DNA of 32,000 bases, taken from Candidatus Omnitrophota bacterium (lineage in GTDB: Bacteria; Omnitrophota; Gorgyraeia; Duberdicusellales; 4484-171). Location: positions 30,001 to 62,000 of the forward strand of contig JAIPHU010000004.1 of NCBI GenBank assembly GCA_021735045.1. Direction: 5' to 3'. The notes under the pieces were generated by a model. The model did not search any database. It was not told the DNA's origin and saw only the letters and a program-made list of their open reading frames with translations. Position numbers and translations under genes: made by a program. This document shows positions 5,102 through 20,598 of the stretch, piece after piece (the stretch's first letter is position 1; each line of letters begins with the position of its first letter).

Positions 5102-5460
5102 GGGGGTGAATGGACTCGACCTAAAAGGCGATGCGAAAAGGAGCATGCCGAGGATGTGAGTTGCCTGCGATAGTGGTACTTGCAAAAAATTAAATGCAGA
5201 AAACACATTTAATACCACTCCTGCTTACGCTGTAAGTTAAGGAGGCTCTTCTACTTTTCTGCCTCGGAAAGTATAAGAGTTCATTTATGAGGCTCGGAGT
5301 AAGCTTTTGCTTTTCGGGTTTACTCTTAAAACTAAGGAAAGCTGCTTCCTGGTAAATCCTGCCTTTTGGAGCTATCAGGAAAAAGATAAACAAAAGGCTA
5401 AGCATGTAGAATCTTTTTGCTGAAATTTTAGGGACGCGGGTTCGATTCCCGCCACCTCCA
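5102..5460 (+). ncRNA. ssrA: tmRNA (transfer-messenger RNA)
   Basis: The 5' GGGGGUGAAUGGACUCGAC and 3' GGACGCGGGUUCGAUUCCCGCCACCUCCA match conserved tmRNA termini. The acceptor stem 5102-5108/5453-5459 includes the G3:U70 alanine identity pair. An internal tag ORF runs 5196-5240 (GCA resume codon, TAA stop). CCA is not encoded. The track ORFs 5030-5218(-) and 5190-5513(-) are artefacts over this RNA. Confidence 0.9.
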
Positions 5461-8786: not shown

Positions 8787-8983
8787 TTGTTTTTAAATCA
8801 TCCACGGCCAACCAACACCACCAGATCCTTCAGATAGGAAGGCGAATGTTTATAAGATACTGCCGTTGAGTGAAGCGGTAAGAAGGTAGAAGTTAGAGGG
8901 GAGAAGTTAGAAAGAATTTAAACAATTGGAGGTCACAAATTGTGATGTCCAATAGATAAAAGCTAAAAAGGTAATTAAAATTT

Positions 8984-9646
8984 ATGTTGTATCTTTATTT
9001 AGATGAAAGCGGTGATTTAGGTTTTGATTTTGTTAACAAAAGGCCTTCTAAGTTTTTTACTATATCTATTTTAGTTATAAGAGGCGCAAAGAAAAGAAGA
9101 CAGGTAGCTAAAAGTGTAGAAAGAACCATTAGAAAAAAATTAAATCCGAAAAGCAAGCGGAGGAGAATGGTTCAAGAATTAAAAGGCACATCAACAACGT
9201 TAGAAATCAAAGAGTATCTATATAAAAGAATAAAGAAGATAGATTTTTCTATTTATAGCATAACCTTAAATAAAAGGCGAGCTTATAGCTATTTAATTAA
9301 AGATAAATCAAGAATTTATAATTTTATAGCACGCAGTATTCTAGATAAAGTTGATTTTTCTGATACCAAAAATAGAGTTATTTTGACAATTGATAAGAGC
9401 AAGAGTAAGCCTCAGATTAAAGAATTTAATGATTATATTTATAACCAATTGGAAGCTAAGATAGATCCTAAAGTTTCTTTATATATAGAGCATGCAGATT
9501 CTTGTGCAGATAAATGTTTAAACGTGGCGGATTTATTTAGCTGGGGAGTTTTTAGAAAACATGAGAGAAAGGATTCTCTATGGTATGATTTATTTGCAGA
9601 AAAAGTTGAATTTGATCAAATATATTTGCTCCAAAATAAAAAATGA
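8984..9646 (+). CDS. DUF3800 family protein
   Basis: The N-terminus MLYLYLDESGD matches the YxDESG signature. The C-terminal HADSCADKCLNVADLFSWGVF matches the DS...Q/N.AD motif of DUF3800. Confidence 0.75.
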   Translation: MLYLYLDESGDLGFDFVNKRPSKFFTISILVIRGAKKRRQVAKSVERTIRKKLNPKSKRRRMVQELKGTSTTLEIKEYLYKRIKKIDFSIYSITLNKRRAYSYLIKDKSRIYNFIARSILDKVDFSDTKNRVILTIDKSKSKPQIKEFNDYIYNQLEAKIDPKVSLYIEHADSCADKCLNVADLFSWGVFRKHERKDSLWYDLFAEKVEFDQIYLLQNKK

Positions 9647-10495: not shown

Positions 10496-11422
10496 ATGGA
10501 TAGAGCTAAAAGTTACACTATTATATCTGCATTATTTCTTGGTATAGCAAATATTTTATACTGGTTTATTCTTCCGCTAATCTTTGCGTTGAAATACCCT
10601 GGTGGTCTACGAGGACCGATTATGCGTTGTATGGTTTCGCCTTCGTTAGAAATAAAAGTAATTATTTATATCATATCAGGGTTGGTGATTTTAGGGATGA
10701 TCTTGTTTATTACCGGTATTATAATTTCTTTTACGAAGAAAAACTGGAGTAAACTGTTAATAATTATTACTACGATTTTAGTATTTATGTCTATTCCTTT
10801 TATGTTTCATTTAGTAAAATTTTTTGTTGGTTCAGTAAAAAATTTTCGATATTCAATCAGTTCTTATATTGGTCCCGCATCGATTTCCAGAGATATGTCA
10901 TCATGGAAGATGTTTAAAAGCCAGAGCGATAAGTATAAAATTCAATATCCACCAGAGATGGTAAAAACTCGATTTTATTACCGTAATCCTGAAGAGACCA
11001 AAGGTTTAAAGAAGGGTCGCCCTTATGATTTCACATCATTCGTTTTAAAGGAGAATAATTATTCTGGAAAAAAGTATTACCCGTTTGAAGTTTATATAGG
11101 CGTACATCTAAATGAGGAAGGCTTATCGCCTTTAGCATTTGAAATAAACAAAGTTAAACAGAACCAAAGAGAAATAAGTAATTACCAGGTGCTGTCAAAA
11201 TCAAAAATTAACATTGCTGGAGTAGAAGGTGTAGTAGATCATACATTAGTAAAAAAAGGAAATGATGCCAAACGATTTGTAAGGTATTTTATTCCTTACA
11301 AGAATGAGATGATAATAATTGTTGGTTTAATTGGCAAGGAAAAAGAATATATCCCCGAATACCATAAGACCTTTATGGACATGCTTTCGACTTTTAAATT
11401 TATGCCAAAAAAAAGAAAATAG
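10496..11422 (+). CDS. Hypothetical membrane protein (about 4 N-terminal TM helices plus a C-terminal soluble domain)
   Basis: 308 aa. Strong RBS (AAGGAGGAAG) 7-8 nt upstream. Hydrophobic segments fill the first ~110 aa. No recognised family. Confidence 0.6.
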   Translation: MDRAKSYTIISALFLGIANILYWFILPLIFALKYPGGLRGPIMRCMVSPSLEIKVIIYIISGLVILGMILFITGIIISFTKKNWSKLLIIITTILVFMSIPFMFHLVKFFVGSVKNFRYSISSYIGPASISRDMSSWKMFKSQSDKYKIQYPPEMVKTRFYYRNPEETKGLKKGRPYDFTSFVLKENNYSGKKYYPFEVYIGVHLNEEGLSPLAFEINKVKQNQREISNYQVLSKSKINIAGVEGVVDHTLVKKGNDAKRFVRYFIPYKNEMIIIVGLIGKEKEYIPEYHKTFMDMLSTFKFMPKKRK

Positions 11423-11564: not shown

Positions 11565-13484
11565 ATGATTAGGTTAAATAATATTTCTAAAAGTTACGGA
11601 GTAAGGACCCTGTTTGACGGGATCAACCTTACAATCAATCGGGGCCTCAAGTGTGGCCTAGTGGGGCCAAATGGTGCCGGAAAAAGTACTCTCTTTTCGC
11701 TGATTCTTGGCTCACAAGAACCAACTTCCGGGCAGGTGCAGATAAAAAAGCAGGTCTCGATTGGATACTTGCCTCAGGAGATGTCTTTTGAGTCTAACGA
11801 TTCGGTCTTATCCGAAGCTACCAAAGGGGATCACTCGATGCGGCGGATGGTTAAGGAGAAGAAAAAGCTGGAAGATGCCGGTAAGGCTGGCTCAAAAAAG
11901 TATGGCGACATATTACATAAGTTAGAGTTTAAGGGGTATTTTCAGTTAGAGCATAAAGCGGAGAAGATCCTCACCGGCTTAGGCTTTACCGAAAAGATGC
12001 TGGCACAACCGGTAAACGAACTTTCCGGCGGCTGGGGAATGAGGATCTATTTAGCCCGGCTTTTAACTTCCCATTACGATATCTTGCTTCTTGATGAACC
12101 GATGAACCATCTTGATTTAGCGGCGGCGTTATGGTTTAAAGACTATCTGTTAAAATTTAACGGAACCTTTATTATGATCTCCCACGATAAGGATTTCTTA
12201 GAACAAGTAACCGATCATATCTTAGTATTGGAAAATGAAACGATCACTAAAGTTAAAGGTAACTATCAGAATTATGAGAAGATACAAAGCCAAAAAGCAA
12301 GCCATCTGTTAAAGCAAGCAGCAGAACAAGCCAAGAAACGCAAACAACTGCAAGATTTTATCGCTCGTTTTCACGGCCAGCCGACTAAAGCTGCCCAGGT
12401 CCGGGCAAAGAGAAAGATGATTGAGAAGATGGAAAAGATTGACCTGCCTTTCCGACGCAGGGAAAGTGTGAGAAACTTCCAATTTCCCGGTACTAAAAAT
12501 AGCGGCTATCAAGTTATTCGTTTAGAAGATGCCTCTAAATCCTATGGCGATCTAAAAGTATACCAAAATCTTGATTTTGAGATTGTCCGTCAGGAAAAAG
12601 CAGTCTTAGCCGGTATTAATGGGGCCGGCAAGTCTACTTTGTTAAAAATATTAGCCGGAGAAATTGATCTTGATTCTGGCCGGCGCCGGGTAGGCAGTAA
12701 TGTCGGTATCGGCTATTTTTCCCAGAGGAGAATGGAGATGCTCAGCGCCTCAAATACAGTCTTTGATGAAGTCTATTCTGCTGCGGAGGGAAATTGTTCG
12801 GAACAAAGAATCAGGACAATCTTAAGTTTATTCTTGTTTACCGGCGATGATGTTAGCAAAAAGGTAGAAATTTTATCCGGCGGAGAAAAGAGCCGTCTTA
12901 TTTTAGCCAAACTATTGATTAATCCACCTAATTTTCTGTTACTGGATGAGCCGACCATTCATTTAGATATTGATGCTACCGAGGCTTTGATCCGCGCCCT
13001 TAAGGTTTATCAGGGAACTTTAGTCTTTATTAGCCACGATATCCATTTTGTCCGTTCGGTAGCTAATGTCGTTTATGAGGTTCGCAATGGTAAAATCAGA
13101 AAATTTCCCGGCAATTTTGATTACTATTGGCAAAGAGCCAAGGAGAAAGGTTTTGTGGAAGACGCAAATTACAAACAGCCGAAACCGGCTAAAAAAGTAA
13201 AGTCAGCTCGAGATATTGCGAAAGAAGAAAAAAAATTAGAAAGGCAAAAAATTAAACAGCAGCAAAAGCAGAATGCGGCTCTTTCAAAAAAGATAAAAGC
13301 TTTACGCAAAGAAAAAGAAAAAATAGAAATCGACCGGAATGTAAAAGCACGAATTTTATCTAACCCCCGTAGTTACCATAATAAGAAGATGGTTATTGAT
13401 TATGGAGCTAAACTGAAAGTAATCGAGCAAAGGCTTAAAGCCATAGATGCTGAAATAGCGAAGCTGGAAGGTTCTTTTCTGTAG
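11565..13484 (+). CDS. ABC-F family ATPase (Uup/YheS-like translation factor type; no transmembrane domain)
   Basis: 639 aa. Two ABC cassettes (GPNGAGKST / LSGGW; GINGAGKST / LSGGEKSR) are joined by a basic linker. A lysine-rich coiled-coil forms the C-terminal extension. Confidence 0.85.
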   Translation: MIRLNNISKSYGVRTLFDGINLTINRGLKCGLVGPNGAGKSTLFSLILGSQEPTSGQVQIKKQVSIGYLPQEMSFESNDSVLSEATKGDHSMRRMVKEKKKLEDAGKAGSKKYGDILHKLEFKGYFQLEHKAEKILTGLGFTEKMLAQPVNELSGGWGMRIYLARLLTSHYDILLLDEPMNHLDLAAALWFKDYLLKFNGTFIMISHDKDFLEQVTDHILVLENETITKVKGNYQNYEKIQSQKASHLLKQAAEQAKKRKQLQDFIARFHGQPTKAAQVRAKRKMIEKMEKIDLPFRRRESVRNFQFPGTKNSGYQVIRLEDASKSYGDLKVYQNLDFEIVRQEKAVLAGINGAGKSTLLKILAGEIDLDSGRRRVGSNVGIGYFSQRRMEMLSASNTVFDEVYSAAEGNCSEQRIRTILSLFLFTGDDVSKKVEILSGGEKSRLILAKLLINPPNFLLLDEPTIHLDIDATEALIRALKVYQGTLVFISHDIHFVRSVANVVYEVRNGKIRKFPGNFDYYWQRAKEKGFVEDANYKQPKPAKKVKSARDIAKEEKKLERQKIKQQQKQNAALSKKIKALRKEKEKIEIDRNVKARILSNPRSYHNKKMVIDYGAKLKVIEQRLKAIDAEIAKLEGSFL

Positions 13485-13560
13485 TGAGCTTGCCAAAATA
13501 TCTTTTAATTAATAGTTGTTTTGGTATAATTAAGCAAAAGAATAGATTATAAAAAAACCT

Positions 13561-14418
13561 ATGAAAATAAGTCAAATACTAAACAGTACCGAGCGTGGTG
13601 TGGCTTTTGAATTTTTCCCTCCCCGAAGCCAGAAATCAGCAGCAGCACTTAAAAACACCCTGAAAGCATTAAAAAAATATAACCCCTTATATGTTTCGAT
13701 GACCTGCGGAGCCGGCGGGAGTAGTTATGAAACTACCCAGGATGCGGTAAATATTTTACTGGAGGAGAAAGATTTAACGGTAATGCCCCATCTTACTTGT
13801 CTGAGCACCGAACCTTCCGCAGTTCGCGAGATACTTCAAAATTATAAAGATTTAGGAATTGCCAATATTATGGCTTTGCGGGGTGATATCTTACCCGAAT
13901 CTGAGGAAGCTAATCTAGCCGGTGAGTTTAAATTCGCTAAAGATCTAATCAAGCTAATTAAAGAGGATGGCCATTTTGATATCGGGGCTGCGGTTTATCC
14001 CGAGGGCCATATTGAAATGAGATCCTTAGATCAAGATCTAAAATATACCAAAGAAAAGATAGATTGCGGAGTCGATTTTGCCGTAACCCAGATGTTTTTT
14101 GATAATCAATATTATTATCAGTTTTTAGAAAGAGCCCGCAGTAACGGAATCAATATCCCGATTTTACCGGGAATTTTACCGCTAACCAATATCGCAAAAG
14201 TCAAAGAATTTGCTTCAATTTGTCGAGCTACTATCCCTGCACAGATCGAAGAGAAATTAAGTCGTTTTTCAAAAAACCCTAAAGACATGCAAAAGGCGGG
14301 AATCGAGTTAACGATTAAACAATGCAAAGATTTGATTGACCATGGCCACCAGCGTTTGCACTTTTTTACATTGAATAAAGCCAGCGTAATGCAAGAGATA
14401 ATCGATGCCTTATTTTAA
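13561..14418 (+). CDS. metF: Methylenetetrahydrofolate reductase
   Basis: 285 aa. FEFFPPR, MTCGAGGS, PHLTC and ALRGD motifs are typical of MetF. Confidence 0.85.
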   Translation: MKISQILNSTERGVAFEFFPPRSQKSAAALKNTLKALKKYNPLYVSMTCGAGGSSYETTQDAVNILLEEKDLTVMPHLTCLSTEPSAVREILQNYKDLGIANIMALRGDILPESEEANLAGEFKFAKDLIKLIKEDGHFDIGAAVYPEGHIEMRSLDQDLKYTKEKIDCGVDFAVTQMFFDNQYYYQFLERARSNGINIPILPGILPLTNIAKVKEFASICRATIPAQIEEKLSRFSKNPKDMQKAGIELTIKQCKDLIDHGHQRLHFFTLNKASVMQEIIDALF

Positions 14419-14425
14419 GAATATC

Positions 14426-14653
14426 ATGAAAAAAACCGCCTTATTTATTTTAATTGTTTTTTTGCTAGCAGGATGCGGAAGACGACGGGAATCGCTGCGC
14501 TACGATCGGAGAGAAACTGCCTTGATAGCAAAAGAGCAGAGGATAAATAGCCAGACAGAAATCCTGATCGACGGAGCAATTATCGGCGGCGGCCTGGTGC
14601 TCTTAATTAGCCTAATCGGCTTTGCCGTCTTCTACTCTCTAGGAAAAAAATGA
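14426..14653 (+). CDS. Small lipoprotein/membrane protein
   Basis: From the internal ATG at 14426 the product begins MKKTALFILIVFLLAGCG, a lipoprotein signal with a lipobox Cys. It also has a C-terminal TM helix. The track start at 14405 overlaps the end of metF and seems less likely. Confidence 0.55.
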   Translation: MKKTALFILIVFLLAGCGRRRESLRYDRRETALIAKEQRINSQTEILIDGAIIGGGLVLLISLIGFAVFYSLGKK

Positions 14654-15156
14654 AAAAGAAAGTAACAGTTAATGACAAGATGCAACGGGGTTATAGCTAT
14701 TATTTGACTGAACCAATAGGAAAGAACTTTGATCCTGAATTTCAGCCAGAACTTACACCAAAAGAAATGTTAGAGTTGGGGGTTTTTGGGGGTAAATACA
14801 TGACCGATTGCCAGAAAGAGTTTCCCAGCTCTTGGTATAAAAAAGCTAAACTCTGTGCCGAAGAACACGATCCACAGCTAAACTATTTTGGCGTAAATGC
14901 CAGCCAGCCGCTTGCTGTATGGCGCAAAAAAGGCTGGATTTATAAAGATGACCCGCGGGGGTGGTTTCAGTGGTATTGCCGTTATTATATGGGAAGGCGG
15001 ATTCAGGAAGAAGACAGGCGCCAGATAAAAAGACAGAAAGCAATTAAAAGACACATCGCCCAAATTAAAAAGAACTGTAAAAAAGGTGACCTTAACTGCC
15101 GGCCCAAACAGCGCCAAGCAGTCTTAAACTGGGCCTATGATAGCAGGAAACTATAA
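14650..15156 (+). CDS. Conserved-looking hypothetical protein (W/C/R-rich; family not recognised)
   Basis: 168-aa ORF with an ATGA overlap to the upstream gene. Complex composition (GWFQWYCRYYMGRR). Confidence 0.6.
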   Translation: MKKKVTVNDKMQRGYSYYLTEPIGKNFDPEFQPELTPKEMLELGVFGGKYMTDCQKEFPSSWYKKAKLCAEEHDPQLNYFGVNASQPLAVWRKKGWIYKDDPRGWFQWYCRYYMGRRIQEEDRRQIKRQKAIKRHIAQIKKNCKKGDLNCRPKQRQAVLNWAYDSRKL

Positions 15157-15225
15157 GTTATAACAAAAGAGGCTGATGATTTGCCTGTATCGAGATAATA
15201 TCGGCACAGAATTAGGGGGAAAACG

Positions 15226-15969
15226 ATGAAAAATAAATGGAGATGGCAGTTGTTTTTAGGTTTAGGACTAATTTTTTTATCGGCTTTTGTTTATTTTATC
15301 CATTATCTTATTTTTAGGGATATGCATCACATTTTTATCTACCTGATCGGAGATATTGGGTTTGTTTTTCTAGAAGTTCTACTGGTGACGTTAATCATCC
15401 ACCAGCTGCTTGTTCAGCAGGAAAAACAAATGTTAATTAAAAAGCTGAATATGGTGATTGGTGTTTTTTTTAGTGAAGTAGGCACAAGTTTATTAAAACA
15501 AATTGCCGTTTTTGATAAAAAAGTTAAAGATATTTCTGGCCACTTAGGAGTTAACAGTGATTGGACTAACAAAGAGTTTAGTAGTCTTAAAAAATATTTA
15601 TACCGCTATGATAGTGATATTGCTATAAGCAGAGCTGGTTTAGAACAATTACGAGATACTTTAGTTGCAAAACGCACTTTTTTAGTTAACTTGTTAGAAA
15701 ATCCTAATTTATTAGAACATGATTCCTTTACAGACACTCTTTGGGCTGTTTTCCATTTAGCAGAAGAGCTATCTAAGAGAGAGGGCTTTGCTAACTTACC
15801 CCAGGCAGATTTAGAGCATTTAGCTAAAGATATCAAGAGATCTTATCAAAACTTAATCGGCGAATGGATTGATTACATCCAACACTTAAAACAAAGTTAT
15901 CCTTATCTTTTCTCTTTAGCAATCCGCACCAATCCTTTTAACGAATCCGCCTCAGTGGTAATTAATTGA
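15226..15969 (+). CDS. Hypothetical membrane-anchored protein
   Basis: 247 aa. Two N-terminal TM helices precede a helical soluble domain. RBS-like GGGGGA lies upstream. Confidence 0.6.
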   Translation: MKNKWRWQLFLGLGLIFLSAFVYFIHYLIFRDMHHIFIYLIGDIGFVFLEVLLVTLIIHQLLVQQEKQMLIKKLNMVIGVFFSEVGTSLLKQIAVFDKKVKDISGHLGVNSDWTNKEFSSLKKYLYRYDSDIAISRAGLEQLRDTLVAKRTFLVNLLENPNLLEHDSFTDTLWAVFHLAEELSKREGFANLPQADLEHLAKDIKRSYQNLIGEWIDYIQHLKQSYPYLFSLAIRTNPFNESASVVIN

Positions 15970-15999
15970 AACAAAATTTGTTTCCCTAAGTTGCATAAC

Positions 16000-16028
16000 T
16001 TGACCCTTAAAACTGCCGGCGTTATAAT
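16000..16028 (+). promoter_or_regulatory. Putative promoter of the K+ channel gene
   Basis: TTGACC (16000-16005), 17-nt spacer, TATAAT (16023-16028). Confidence 0.45.
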
Positions 16029-16097
16029 AGTTGTAAATTATTTTTTTTAGCTCAAGAAGAAAGGGGAAAGTTTAGCAGGAAAAGTTGTTTTAATTAT

Positions 16098-16787
16098 ATG
16101 AAAAAATTAAAGTTCAACATCTTAAAGAAAATACTTGGGTTTAAAACAAGCGAACAAAGTTTTGCGTTTCTGATCCTTATTCTCATCACATTCATATTAA
16201 TTGAACCAATCGTTAAAGATTTAGGTTTTTTGGCAAATATCATCACCAGCATTGTTATTTCCTTTGTTCCTTTTGCAATTATCCGTGCTGCCGGAAAAAA
16301 TAAAAAAGAACGCAGAAGGGCTTTTATGATCGGTATTATTTTTTTGATCCTTGTTTGGCTGAATGTTTTGGTAGAAGCCCACTTTATGAGAATTCTTTTC
16401 TCGCTTTATTTAATAGTGTTTTATGTTTATCCTTTAAGAATAATAGTTAGACATCTTCTTACTTCAAGAAAAATAACTTTAAACACGATTTATGCTGCGA
16501 TTGCCGGTTATCTTCTGATTGGGTTGGCATGGGCTTCAATTTATACTGCGATAAATATTTTAAAACCGGGATCTTTTTTAAATATTGAAGGGGTAAATGA
16601 CAGTATCTATTACAGCTTCTTAACTCTTACTACTTTAGGCTATGGAGATATAGTACCCCTTACAGCTTTGGCTAAAAGAGTAGCAGTTTTAGAAAGTATG
16701 GTCGGCGTTCTTTATAATGCGATAGTTATTGCTTTTATAGTGGGAATATATATAAGCGAAAGGCTTGCAAAAAAAGAAAGCGAATAA
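16098..16787 (+). CDS. Potassium channel family protein (ion_trans_2 type pore)
   Basis: 229 aa. Contains the K+ selectivity filter TLTTLGYGD between hydrophobic helices. Confidence 0.8.
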   Translation: MKKLKFNILKKILGFKTSEQSFAFLILILITFILIEPIVKDLGFLANIITSIVISFVPFAIIRAAGKNKKERRRAFMIGIIFLILVWLNVLVEAHFMRILFSLYLIVFYVYPLRIIVRHLLTSRKITLNTIYAAIAGYLLIGLAWASIYTAINILKPGSFLNIEGVNDSIYYSFLTLTTLGYGDIVPLTALAKRVAVLESMVGVLYNAIVIAFIVGIYISERLAKKESE

Positions 16788-18988: not shown

Positions 18989-19306
18989 ATGGCAGTTGAA
19001 GTAACTAATGCAAATTTTGATAGTGAAGTTTTACAATCAGAAATTCCGGTCTTAATTGATTTTTGGGCTCCTTGGTGTGGGCCATGTAAGGCAGTAGAGC
19101 CGGTTTTAGAAGAAATTGAAAATGAAGTAGGCGAAAAAATAAAAATTTGTAGAATTAATTTAGATGAAGCACCGGAAATTGCAACAAAGTATTCAATAAT
19201 GAGTATTCCTACCTTAATGGTCGTAAAGGATGGAAATATTATGGATACCAAAGTTGGTGCTTTACCTAAAGATAGTCTGATGAGCATTATTCAGCCTTAT
19301 CTTTAG
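18989..19306 (+). CDS. trxA: Thioredoxin
   Basis: 105 aa with the WAPWCGPCK active site and a typical thioredoxin length. AAGGAG RBS upstream. Confidence 0.9.
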   Translation: MAVEVTNANFDSEVLQSEIPVLIDFWAPWCGPCKAVEPVLEEIENEVGEKIKICRINLDEAPEIATKYSIMSIPTLMVVKDGNIMDTKVGALPKDSLMSIIQPYL

Positions 19307-19329
19307 ATAAGTTTTTGACAACAAAGACC

Positions 19330-19358
19330 TTGCTTTTCTAGAGATAAGTTGCTATAAT
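19330..19358 (+). promoter_or_regulatory. Putative promoter driving the tRNA-fragment/GIY-YIG/tRNA-Met unit
   Basis: TTGCTT (19330-19335), 17-nt spacer, TATAAT (19353-19358), about 22 nt upstream of 19381. Confidence 0.4.
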
Positions 19359-19380
19359 TTTATGCTTTTTTGAATAGAAT

Positions 19381-19495
19381 GGGCCTGTAGCTCAGCCTGG
19401 TTAGAGCAGTCCCGACGTTCGCATTTCATGCTCAGTTGGGATTCCGACTTCTGGCCTACAGTTTAACGGCAGCCAGAACGTCGGAACTGACTCAT
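19381..19495 (+). pseudogene. Partial copy of tRNA-Met (first 38 nt, through the anticodon CAT), interrupted by a 77-nt insertion
   Basis: 19381-19409 is identical to 19776-19804 (29 nt). 19487-19495 (CTGACTCAT) is identical to 19805-19813. No T-arm or 3' acceptor strand follows. Confidence 0.8.
19410..19486 (+). repeat. 77-bp element with 11-bp terminal inverted repeats, inserted in the tRNA fragment
   Basis: The 5' end TCCCGACGTTC and the reverse complement of the 3' end, TTCCGACGTTC, match at 10 of 11 positions. An internal 13-bp hairpin forms between 19442-19454 and 19473-86 (one bulge). The insertion removes or duplicates no tRNA nucleotide. Confidence 0.65.
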
Positions 19496-19515
19496 TTCGG
19501 TTTTAGGTAAGTTGA

Positions 19516-19785
19516 ATGGCTTATGTTTATATCTTGCAAGATAAGCAAAACGGAAAATTTTATATCGGCAGTACTAATAATGTTGAATCTAGATTCAAGC
19601 AACACAAAAGTAAAAAACACCATTCAAGTAAATGCTTAACAGATCCTGAAATTGTGTTTAAGCAAAAGTTTGATAGTTTAAAAATCGCAAGAAAAATAGA
19701 GCTAAGGTTAAAGAAATATAAACATAAAGATTTCATTGAAAAAATAATTAGGGACGGTATTATAAAGAAAATGCAGGGCCTGTAG
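19516..19785 (+). CDS. Small GIY-YIG nuclease family protein (YhbQ/UPF0213-like)
   Basis: 89 aa. YVYILQDKQNGKFYIGSTNNVESRFKQH is a canonical GIY-YIG N-terminal motif. The last 10 nt, including the TAG stop (19783-19785), lie inside the tRNA gene. Confidence 0.8.
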   Translation: MAYVYILQDKQNGKFYIGSTNNVESRFKQHKSKKHHSSKCLTDPEIVFKQKFDSLKIARKIELRLKKYKHKDFIEKIIRDGIIKKMQGL

Positions 19786-19850
19786 CTCAGCCTGGTTAGA
19801 GCAGCTGACTCATAATCAGTTGGTCGGAGGTTCAAATCCTCCCGGGCCCA
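19776..19850 (+). tRNA. tRNA-Met (anticodon CAT; elongator-type, or a tRNA-Ile2 lysidine substrate)
   Basis: Folded by hand into a cloverleaf. Acceptor 19776-82/19843-49, D-arm GCTC/GAGC, anticodon stem GCTGA/TCAGT. The loop CTCATAA places CAT at 19811-13. T-arm GGAGG-TTCAAAT-CCTCC, discriminator A. The G1:C72 pair argues against an initiator tRNA. CCA is not encoded. Confidence 0.9.
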
Positions 19851-19872
19851 CGTTAAAAAAAATAGGAAATTA

Positions 19873-20598
19873 ATGAATTTAAAAGATGAGATAAAAAAGC
19901 TGATAAAGCTACAAGAGATAGATAAACAAGTTTACAAACTTAACCTTCAAAAAAGCAACAATATACCTGCAAAGATTGATGAGTTAAAAGAATCTATTGA
20001 TCAAAAACAAAAAGAGTTTGCCGCATTTAAAGACAAGGTAAATCGACTTGAGCTAGAAAAAAAGAATAAGGAAGGGGAACTTACCCAAAAAGAAGAAAAT
20101 TTAAAAAAAGCAAAGTCACAGCTTTATCAGTTAAAATCGAATAAAGAATATCAAGTAAAACTGAATGAAATTAGTTCTATAGAGGCAGATATCTCCTGTG
20201 CCGAAGAAGAAGTTATAAAGTTTTTAGATAATATTGAACAAGAAAAAGCAGAGGTAAAAAAAGAAAAAGAAAAAGTTGAATCTGAAACTAACAAGATGAA
20301 GCAAGAAATCGCTGACTTAGAAAAAGAGACCAAAGAAATTGATCAAAAAATTAACGAGCTAGAAAATAAACGAAAAAGTTTTACTTCTGATGTCGATAAA
20401 AAGATTCTTAATCAATATCAAGACCTTTTAAAAAAGCGAAATGGCCTTGCCATTGTTCCGGTTGTAAATAATAACTGTGGGGCTTGCCATATTTCATTAA
20501 CTCGACAAAAAGTCAATGAAATAAAGATGTATGATAAGCTGATTTTATGTGAAAGTTGTGTACGTATTCTTTATATCCCAGAGGACCTAGAGTTATGA
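19873..20598 (+). CDS. Coiled-coil protein with C-terminal C4 zinc ribbon (COG1579 family)
   Basis: 241 aa. A long coiled coil precedes CGACH...CESC. As in many bacteria, the gene lies directly upstream of an RNase H gene. Confidence 0.75.
   Translation: MNLKDEIKKLIKLQEIDKQVYKLNLQKSNNIPAKIDELKESIDQKQKEFAAFKDKVNRLELEKKNKEGELTQKEENLKKAKSQLYQLKSNKEYQVKLNEISSIEADISCAEEEVIKFLDNIEQEKAEVKKEKEKVESETNKMKQEIADLEKETKEIDQKINELENKRKSFTSDVDKKILNQYQDLLKKRNGLAIVPVVNNNCGACHISLTRQKVNEIKMYDKLILCESCVRILYIPEDLEL

Follow-up and report, generated by a model that had tools for sequence, protein, structure and literature searches.

How did a gene for a small nuclease come to lie between two copies of the 5′ part of one transfer RNA (tRNA), with its last codons inside the intact copy? 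The question is raised by a 32,000-nucleotide stretch of a Candidatus Omnitrophota genome (assembly GCA_021735045.1, contig JAIPHU010000004.1, positions 30,001 to 62,000 of the forward strand), hereafter the window, whose own numbering is used throughout. We propose, with a probability that we put at about one half, that positions 19381-19851 are one copy of a widespread selfish, homing-endonuclease-like module that colonises tRNA genes while an intact tRNA is kept; the activity and the target of its nuclease we infer from comparisons of sequence. The module combines a minimal GIY-YIG nuclease gene with a conserved double hairpin, H, both set into the 5′ portion of a tRNA gene, and occurs in Omnitrophota and Patescibacteria.

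Layout of the locus and its nuclease

A tRNA-Met with anticodon CAT is called by ARAGORN at 19776-19851 on the forward strand, the sole tRNA found in the region, and the Rfam tRNA model scores 72.3 bits at 19776-19850, bearing out a preliminary description of this DNA that had placed an intact tRNA 3′ of the nuclease gene. The first 29 nucleotides (nt) of this tRNA, GGGCCTGTAGCTCAGCCTGGTTAGAGCAG, occur in exactly two copies, at 19381-19409 and 19776-19804; the upstream copy is 100% identical to the intact gene and comprises the 5′ strand of the acceptor stem, the whole D arm and the start of the anticodon stem. Shuffled versions of the window gave 0 matches to the 29-mer in 100 shuffles with 3 mismatches tolerated. 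The following nine nucleotides, CTGACTCAT (tRNA nt 30-38), are found at 19487-19495 and 19805-19813, and the homology of the upstream copy ends immediately after CAT, where TTC stands against AAT. An upstream copy of nt 1-38, divided into 29 and 9 nt and stopping right after the anticodon, had been described earlier, and both features are exact. The 77 nt that separate the two pieces, 19410-19486, are no filler: they are the conserved double hairpin H.

Between the two tRNA copies lies a single substantial open reading frame (ORF), at 19516-19785 on the same strand, encoding 89 amino acids (aa). Its last codons, CAG GGC CTG TAG, are tRNA nt 1-10, the TAG stop at 19783-19785 being nt 8-10, as had been noted before. 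The ORF is preceded by a 20-nt spacer (19496-19515) in which a Shine-Dalgarno-like AGGTAAG can be read at 19505-19511; the spacer is poorly conserved in relatives (whose loci carry L numbers here), except for AGGTAA in L004.

The assignment of the product to the GIY-YIG family, also made earlier, is borne out by a Pfam match (PF01541) over residues 1-69 (E = 3.7e-13; 50 bits vs a cut-off of 22.6). In 29 family members the catalytic residues Y5, Y16, R26 and E62 do not vary, nor does G18, and a fifth catalytic residue, H30, is kept in at least 90%; the window protein has all of them. An AlphaFold2 model (pLDDT 86, pTM 0.77) has the alpha/beta GIY-YIG fold; the top Foldseek matches are 1zg2 (UPF0213), Slx1, the I-TevI catalytic domain and UvrC-N, with weak E values of 0.016-0.4, and the profile match to 1zg2 reaches E = 3.7e-10. 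A conserved C-terminal helix, KRKDFIEKII-DG-IK, is specific to the family. Ratios of non-synonymous to synonymous substitution (dN/dS) of 0.13-0.15 in the window clade place the ORF under purifying selection. Models of homing enzymes (NCBIfam group I intron endonuclease, PHROG homing endonuclease) cover only residues 1-40.

The family comprises about 1,560 protein clusters at 50% identity (E<=1e-10). Many of its database members are called at 110-165 aa with the domain at the C-terminal end, and these long calls are probably ORFs that gene callers extended 5′ through H and the tRNA fragment. A phage origin was considered and rejected: a scan of viral contigs gave N-terminal motif matches of 27-38 residues, the exceptions being three weak matches at 34-37% identity, and no full-length member. 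A role in anti-phage defence was likewise set aside, as PADLOC returned only N-terminal GIY-YIG motif matches with E values of 7e-6 or weaker.

The double hairpin and its recurrence among relatives

H consists of two abutting hairpins, with no spacer between them, each with a 7-bp stem and a CCGAC/GTCGG core. Hairpin 1 (19410-19441) reads TCCCGAC-G ... GTTGGGA, its stem containing one G-T pair, and encloses an inner stem GCAT/ATGC; hairpin 2 (19442-19486) reads TTCCGAC ... C-GTCGGAA and encloses CTGGC/GCCAG. The GTTGG of hairpin 1 is GTCGG in relatives. Folded as DNA, 19404-19492 has a free energy of -18.6 kcal/mol (z = -3.8). H is the only cluster of CCGAC/GTCGG motifs of its kind in the window. 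A 14-nt likeness of 19426-19439 to tRNA nt 35-48 was taken as chance: it consists mostly of the GTTGG arm and is weaker in L004.

A protein-alignment scan that took one genome per species yielded 129 relatives, the best 80 loci of which were analysed; statistics on H and on stop codons refer to 75 non-redundant loci, and the family statistics are not phylogenetically independent. H lies 10-41 nt 5′ of the ORF in 59 of the 75. Its stems have the form NN+CCGAC, with a G after the CCGAC of hairpin 1 in 58/59, a C before the GTCGG of hairpin 2 in 55/59, and a spacing between the cores of exactly 4 nt in 57/59. The outer pairs of the stems covary (CC/GG, AG/CT, CT/AG, TC/GA, TT/AA). Compensatory changes are also found in L008 and, in L004, both in the inner stem (GCAT/ATGC to GTAC/GTAC) and in the core of hairpin 2 (CCGAC/GTCGG to CCGAT/ATCGG).

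Within tRNA-derived sequence the insertion of H is clean: in 22 of about 30 mappable cases the offset is 0, with neither duplication nor loss. Most often H follows nt 15, in the D loop; in the window clade it follows nt 29. The stretch of tRNA on the ORF side of H measures 5-14 nt, with a mode of 9, independently of where H sits (r=0.11). Copies of H located 3′ of an intact tRNA are the mirror image of this arrangement, with 3-12 nt on the inner side and the long homology outward. Of the 92 copies of H counted in about 240 kb of sampled loci, 59 lie shortly before the ORF, 3 stand between it and the tRNA, and 17 follow the tRNA at a distance of up to 400 nt. When both strands of the copies were folded, the sense strand was the more stable in 43 and the antisense in 44; G-U pairs make up 25 of 1938 (1.3%), and the consensus is symmetric under reverse complementation. 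Because it is symmetric, almost purely Watson-Crick paired and inserted without target duplication, we read H as an element at the DNA level. It behaves as a pair of DNA palindromes, not as an intron or leader RNA, and an Rfam search of 19100-20000 with E values up to 10 returned the tRNA only, with no intron or other RNA family.

The family extends from Omnitrophota to many lineages of Patescibacteria, the Candidate Phyla Radiation (CPR). Proteins with 97%, 88%, 80%, 62% and 53% identity to that of the window are encoded in the same place, 5′ of a tRNA(CAT) and a CT398-like gene, and the order at each of these loci is that of the window: tRNA 5′ copy, H, some 9-12 further tRNA nucleotides, ORF, intact tRNA. 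These loci come from independent JGI, Logan and NCBI Omnitrophota assemblies, and the layout is present in a complete genome as well, which disposes of the concern that the repeated 29-mer could be an assembly artefact. More widely, a tRNA on the same strand starts -40 to +160 nt from the end of the ORF in about 70 of the 80 loci, and the others fit on inspection; among them are an uncalled tRNA-His, tandem H-interrupted fragments ahead of the tRNA, masked bases, and a variant order in which the intact tRNA is followed by the ORF and then by an H-interrupted, 5′-truncated copy. Adjacency of a GIY-YIG gene to a tRNA with a duplicated 5′ part, whose recurrence the preliminary description had left for a survey to establish, is thus seen across the family. 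The partner tRNAs represent 21 anticodons and 11 amino acids, and several metagenome-assembled genomes (MAGs) carry two copies of the module at different tRNAs. In a neighbour-joining protein tree the clustering by tRNA type is partial, which suggests descent that is mostly faithful to the site, with occasional switches. The partial copy ends at tRNA nt 21-27 in most loci.

In 39 of the 75 loci the ORF has no stop codon of its own before the tRNA and terminates inside it. For 32 of these 39 the stop is TAG at nt 8-10, where one third would be expected (p=5e-10); the conserved U8-A9-G10 of the tRNA supplies the stop codon of the ORF.

Some loci show the module as an insert. In L009, L016, L078, L036 and L051 the outer pieces amount to one tRNA split at a single position by a segment of the form H, short piece, ORF, intact tRNA, short piece, H′. 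In L078 the outer piece on the 3′ side has a T stem that is different yet fully compensated (GTAGG/CCTAC vs CCAGG/CCTGG); two tRNA alleles must therefore have met there, one of them on imported DNA. Two further loci carry additional fragments. In L046 (1380-1405), 5′ of the partial copy, lies a 37-nt remnant of the 3′ end of a second GIY-YIG ORF with 3 mismatches to the resident gene, and the repeat unit, ORF tail plus tRNA nt 1-15, is laid out as in a tandem or rolling duplication. In L004 (2753-2871) about 115 extra nt, starting with CTGACTCA (tRNA nt 30-37), stand between the conserved promoter and the partial copy.

The upstream copy had been interpreted as a displaced relic of the old tRNA gene. 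Its conservation speaks otherwise: it stays identical to its own tRNA while the tRNAs diverge between lineages. Between the window and L004, at an ORF synonymous divergence (dS) of 0.65, all 38 of its 38 nt are unchanged (neutral expectation 3e-10); a C-to-T change in the D loop of L001 is present in both the partial and the intact copy; and in L008 and L011, which have a different tRNA (GGGCCCATAGCTCAG...), the upstream copies match that tRNA. Judged by these comparisons, the partial copy is maintained and co-evolves with its tRNA instead of decaying. It occupies the tRNA's position behind a conserved promoter.

Sites without the ORF also exist in related Omnitrophota, as the idea of an inserted element had called for. 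A metagenome scan with the neighbouring CT398-like protein recovered more distant Omnitrophota loci (37-51% identity), among which L091, L092, L093, L095 and L096 have the order tRNA-Met, tRNA-Val, CT398, with no ORF, H or partial tRNA copy seen. In L089 and L094 partial tRNA copies and hairpin pairs remain as relics where the ORF is absent. ORF-less hairpin pairs within partial tRNA-Val or tRNA-Met copies are located at about 2348-2500 in L094, with another 5′ of its tRNA-Met, and at 1300-1395 in L033; both loci have a compensated core variant, CCGCC/GGCGG, in the same architecture, and in L089 other hairpins follow a partial tRNA-Met copy 5′ of the tRNA-Met. In other lineages the ORF sits at the Met or at the Val gene of the same tRNA cluster. 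From the empty sites and these two locations it follows that the module was acquired, and that it entered the tRNA cluster more than once. The window clade itself has no tRNA-Val at the locus (19852-19872), and the window no other tRNA in its 32 kb; L008, L011 and L089-L096 have the order tRNA-Met, tRNA-Val, CT398.

Proposed homing into tRNA genes and the competing explanations

If the module is a selfish element of tRNA genes, its nuclease would act as a free-standing homing endonuclease that cuts a tRNA gene copy lacking H, at a probable distance of about one helical turn from the H site, and repair would copy H and the ORF from the module-bearing copy, with the tRNA-derived flanks serving as homology arms. 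An intact tRNA would always be retained beside the ORF, the host keeping its tRNA and the 5′ fragment being left interrupted by H. We consider H most likely to be the structure that the nuclease recognises, and it would also disrupt the spare copy. The same cycle of break and repair would keep the partial copy identical to the tRNA and would scatter extra H-interrupted tRNA fragments around some loci. Expression of the ORF would probably start from the tRNA promoter, and RNase P would part messenger RNA (mRNA) from tRNA, in which event an ORF ending on U8-A9-G10 would lose its stop codon. The clean copies of H at the same position and the concerted evolution of the two tRNA parts are the only signs, and indirect ones, of cleavage and copying by repair. 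An element that enters a tRNA gene and leaves an intact tRNA was also the core of the preliminary description; this part stands as the best general reading, and the unit proposed for it, 19496-19813, does not, as it omits H.

Several observations weigh against this reading. Vertical inheritance at a single locus across deep divergence (proteins 62-97% identical), together with purifying selection, also fits a domesticated gene. The known empty sites are distant only, with CT398 proteins 37-51% identical, and no polymorphism between filled and empty sites was seen among close relatives. The 89-aa protein is a single domain and lacks the separate DNA-binding domain to which known homing enzymes owe their long target sites. 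At position 70 (19721-19723) the window protein has His, where the 97%-identical L001 and at least 90% of the family as a whole have Arg (the KRKDF motif); given R70H and the G-T pair in hairpin 1, the window copy may be slightly impaired. Recognition of tRNA sequence alone would mean cutting the adjacent intact tRNA, and the model leaves this immunity unexplained; nor does it account for how a new tRNA is colonised with the acceptor stem kept matched. Finally, H is also found outside tRNA genes. A 20-kb stretch of one complete CPR genome, Giovannonibacteria CP066687.1 (L134), contains at least six copies: one forms 15 in-frame codons in the hinge of the L7/L12 gene, one forms 13 in-frame codons in a hypothetical gene, and others lie between genes and inside a 23S rRNA gene (12061-16306) that exceeds the Rfam model by about 1,300 nt. 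Double hairpins of the H type are found there at 8966-9010, 9446-9484, 11041-11082 and 12194-12234. With H in such contexts, its mobility needs no tRNA homology.

A bolder form of the proposal, which we offer tentatively and think somewhat doubtful, takes the GIY-YIG protein and H together as a new mobility system. A single-domain nuclease would recognise a symmetric double hairpin, or cruciform, break DNA about one helical turn from its foot and mobilise H, free of duplication, into tRNA, rRNA and protein genes. H would then be the first palindromic element of its kind for which an enzyme of this sort is identified. The gene would be retained between the tRNA copy killed by H and the only intact one, borrowing the promoter and stop codon of the tRNA and possibly supplying a promoter from its own 3′ coding end.

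Transposon-like readings were considered as well: duplication of tRNA nt 1-a as a target site, duplication of the short piece (9 bp), integration of a circle through H in the Campbell manner, and a composite element with a copy of H at either end. Each suits some loci, L009, L016 and L078 among them, and none is singled out by the sequence.

The copies of H in CP066687.1 lend weight to the main rival explanation, in which H is itself a true mobile palindromic insertion, akin to Rickettsia palindromic elements or REPINs, and the GIY-YIG protein its largely domesticated trans-acting nuclease. The gene would then stand 5′ of tRNAs mainly for the sake of expression, and the tRNA fragments would be collateral of H insertion and local repair. 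Insertion without target duplication agrees with this, as do the ORF-less CCGCC/GGCGG hairpins that interrupt partial tRNAs in L094 and L033, the other hairpins of L089, the purifying selection on an ORF held at the same locus over deep divergence, and the presence of H on one or both sides of the nuclease gene; repetitive extragenic palindromes (REPs) flank the genes of REP-associated tyrosine transposases (RAYTs) in a comparable way, and the GIY-YIG protein would be to H what these enzymes are to REPINs. We nevertheless judge it unlikely. The whole 32 kb of the window, and likewise its close relatives, hold a single H, and it is at the ORF; the ORF is multi-copy in some MAGs and associated with 21 different tRNA species, which is how a mobile element behaves; and a benefit in expression alone leaves both the fixed reading-frame junction of ORF and tRNA and the partial duplication unexplained.

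In the preliminary description the inserted unit was the ORF plus a replacement 5′ portion of the tRNA (19496-19813), placed directly after CAT, and the 77 nt would be an unrelated later insertion. This account has in its favour that the upstream homology stops directly behind CAT in four loci (the window, L004, L009 and L011) and no more than 2 nt away from it in L008, and that homing-endonuclease genes of fungal mitochondria are known to insert with duplication of part of the target gene. It is made quite improbable by the family as a whole. The proposed unit leaves out the most conserved non-coding part of the module, H, which is present in 59 of the 75 modules with conserved sequence and geometry. 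The tie to the anticodon fails too, for the end of the partial copy tracks H, following it by 5-14 nt with H anywhere from tRNA nt 10 to 33, and falls at nt 21-27 in most loci; and the upstream copy is maintained, where this account has it displaced.

The maintenance of that copy could also be read as the mark of an RNA device, in which the upstream tRNA 5′ part and H form a structured leader and two acceptor 5′ strands compete for the one 3′ strand, switching the transcript between an mRNA mode, in which the ORF keeps its stop, and a tRNA mode, in which cleavage by RNase P yields a non-stop mRNA for transfer-messenger RNA (tmRNA). In the minimum-energy fold of 19360-19860 the 5′ strand of the upstream copy is indeed paired with the acceptor 3′ strand downstream, nt 1-29 of that copy co-evolve with the tRNA, the ORF in 39 of the 75 loci stops 3′ of the RNase P site, and a tmRNA gene is present in the window (5102-5460, tag peptide AENTFNTTPAYAVS). 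Against this, H has no strand bias, nearly no G-U pairs and a reverse-complement symmetric consensus; it occurs in protein-coding and rRNA genes and 3′ of tRNAs; nothing in Rfam matched it; and the identity of the two tRNA parts runs through the D arm, further than acceptor pairing needs. We therefore give this explanation very little credence.

An intron or split tRNA, whether a group I intron with its homing gene in the anticodon loop or H as a small intron, is effectively refuted: H is a clean insertion in tRNA sequence, and its location, behind CAU and with a U preceding the would-be 5′ splice site, is reminiscent of the group I introns of cyanobacterial tRNA-fMet, but the Rfam search of 19100-20000 matched no group I intron or other family at E values up to 10, the ORF is followed by a complete uninterrupted tRNA and not by a 3′ exon, and deleting H produces a detectable tRNA for only 2 of the 92 copies.

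Precedents, expression signals and tRNA identity

The nearest precedent is SegB of phage T4, a free-standing GIY-YIG homing endonuclease in a tRNA cluster, whose target includes a conserved tRNA motif, the T-psi-C stem-loop, and which spreads together with neighbouring tRNA genes through break repair (PMC2330249). Like SegB, the window gene lies between or beside tRNA genes; SegB differs in having no hairpin element, no partial tRNA duplication and no overlap of ORF and tRNA. We also take SegB, a phage-borne protein, to be larger than 89 aa and to possess a DNA-binding part. As a candidate for the class of Seg-like homing genes, the window locus has the expected presence and absence of the ORF, seen among distant relatives, and does not have the DNA-binding domain. 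By profile, fold and single-domain size the closest proteins are the UPF0213/YhbQ-like family (PDB 1zg2, 1ywl) and the Slx1 nuclease domain. Prokaryotic Slx1-like proteins have been described as a minimal form of GIY-YIG, in an account that reports neither linkage to tRNAs nor a hairpin partner for Slx1-like or UPF0213 proteins (PMC1564403).

Two features of the module, a nuclease ORF inserted in a gene of which a functional copy is kept and two-hairpin elements in the same genomes, are shared with mitochondrial systems. There, homing genes that duplicate part of the host gene regenerate a functional copy and leave a displaced fragment, in protein genes and usually at the 3′ end, and the mitochondrial DNA of Allomyces carries small mobile double-hairpin elements; we know of no fixed physical coupling of such double hairpins to an ORF. 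Rickettsia palindromic elements and the REP/REPIN-RAYT systems resemble H as short palindromes found in frame in protein genes and in RNA genes, the latter also in having a repeat-flanked enzyme gene. RAYTs are HUH enzymes, not GIY-YIG nucleases, neither system is known to be tied to tRNA genes, and to our knowledge Rickettsia palindromic elements have no enzyme assigned to them. In the collaborative homing of cyanophage psbA and F-CphI, a free-standing nuclease gene stands next to a gene with an ORF-less intron at the presumed cut site; unlike that intron, which splices itself out and leaves the gene working, H is unspliced and the copies it interrupts are truncated pseudogenes. An integrase-type tRNA element was rejected: no tyrosine or serine recombinase appeared among the Pfam annotations of module neighbours in relatives or among the scanned neighbours in the window, and the duplicated part of the tRNA is its 5′ end, not its 3′ end.

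A 2024 survey of insertions in CPR rRNA genes reports GIY-YIG ORFs in insertions that belong neither to group I nor to group II introns, and many uncharacterised inserts of less than 200 bp placed at stem-loop tips or bases (PMC11270868). The copy of H inside the 23S gene, in the same host group, fits the description of these short insertions; tRNA genes, hairpins and palindromes have 0 occurrences in that paper. That GIY-YIG genes have left Patescibacteria by horizontal transfer is inferred in another study. In the full-text literature available, which is incomplete, we found no published description of the tRNA-nested arrangement of nuclease and hairpin.

If our reading is right, CPR bacteria and Omnitrophota, with their reduced genomes, harbour a compact class of selfish elements that reside in tRNA genes and do not destroy them. 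It would account for the many genes annotated as "GIY-YIG nuclease family protein" beside tRNAs, and for tRNA fragments and short insertions in CPR tRNA and rRNA genes. For annotation, the modules would be a source of false or partial tRNA calls and artificially extended ORFs. An 89-aa nuclease paired with a small, defined DNA structure would also be attractive for studies of structure-directed cleavage, and possibly as a tool.

Transcription of the module could draw on two signals. The likely native promoter of the tRNA lies at 19330-19358 on the forward strand, 22 nt 5′ of the partial copy, with a -35 element TTGCTT at 19330-19335 and an extended -10, TGcTATAAT, at 19350-19358. It is kept in L001, L009 and L004, and the empty-site relative L096 has a promoter-like TATAAT 12 nt 5′ of tRNA +1. 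The extended -10 is perfect; the -35 matches at only 3 of 6 positions, below the -35 threshold of the promoter scan, which did not list it. The scan gave in its place TTGAAA-16-TATTAT at 19736-19763, inside the 3′ end of the ORF, which matches at 10 of 12 positions and ends 12 nt before tRNA +1; the upstream site, earlier taken for the only good promoter, is thus not strictly the sole candidate. Such pairs (TTGAAA-16-TATTAT/TATATT, ending 5-14 nt before tRNA +1, from the window and L009 to L088) fall in the conserved C-terminal coding sequence for F-I-E-K-I-I-x-D-G-x-I-K and are properly placed in 21 of 66 loci, against 0/66 control windows. The Ile codon that helps to form TTG is ATT in 79% of cases vs 46% at other Ile positions (Fisher p=2e-7). 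These figures are no more than suggestive of a built-in promoter that the module may carry for its tRNA.

The tRNA(CAT) does not look like an initiator when its sequence is read: it has a G1-C72 pair and lacks GGG/CCC runs in the anticodon stem. It may be an elongator-type tRNA-Met or resemble tRNA-Ile2; its D arm, anticodon loop and variable region are similar to what we take to be the sequence of E. coli tRNA-Ile2, the lysidine-containing species. Near the upstream promoter, two copies of a 16-nt palindrome, CTTATCTTTAGATAAG and CTTTTCTAGAGATAAG, occupy 19296-19311 and 19333-19348. One overlaps the stop codon of trxA, and the other, which is conserved in relatives, stands between the -35 and -10 elements of the candidate promoter; the palindrome could act as an operator or a weak terminator.

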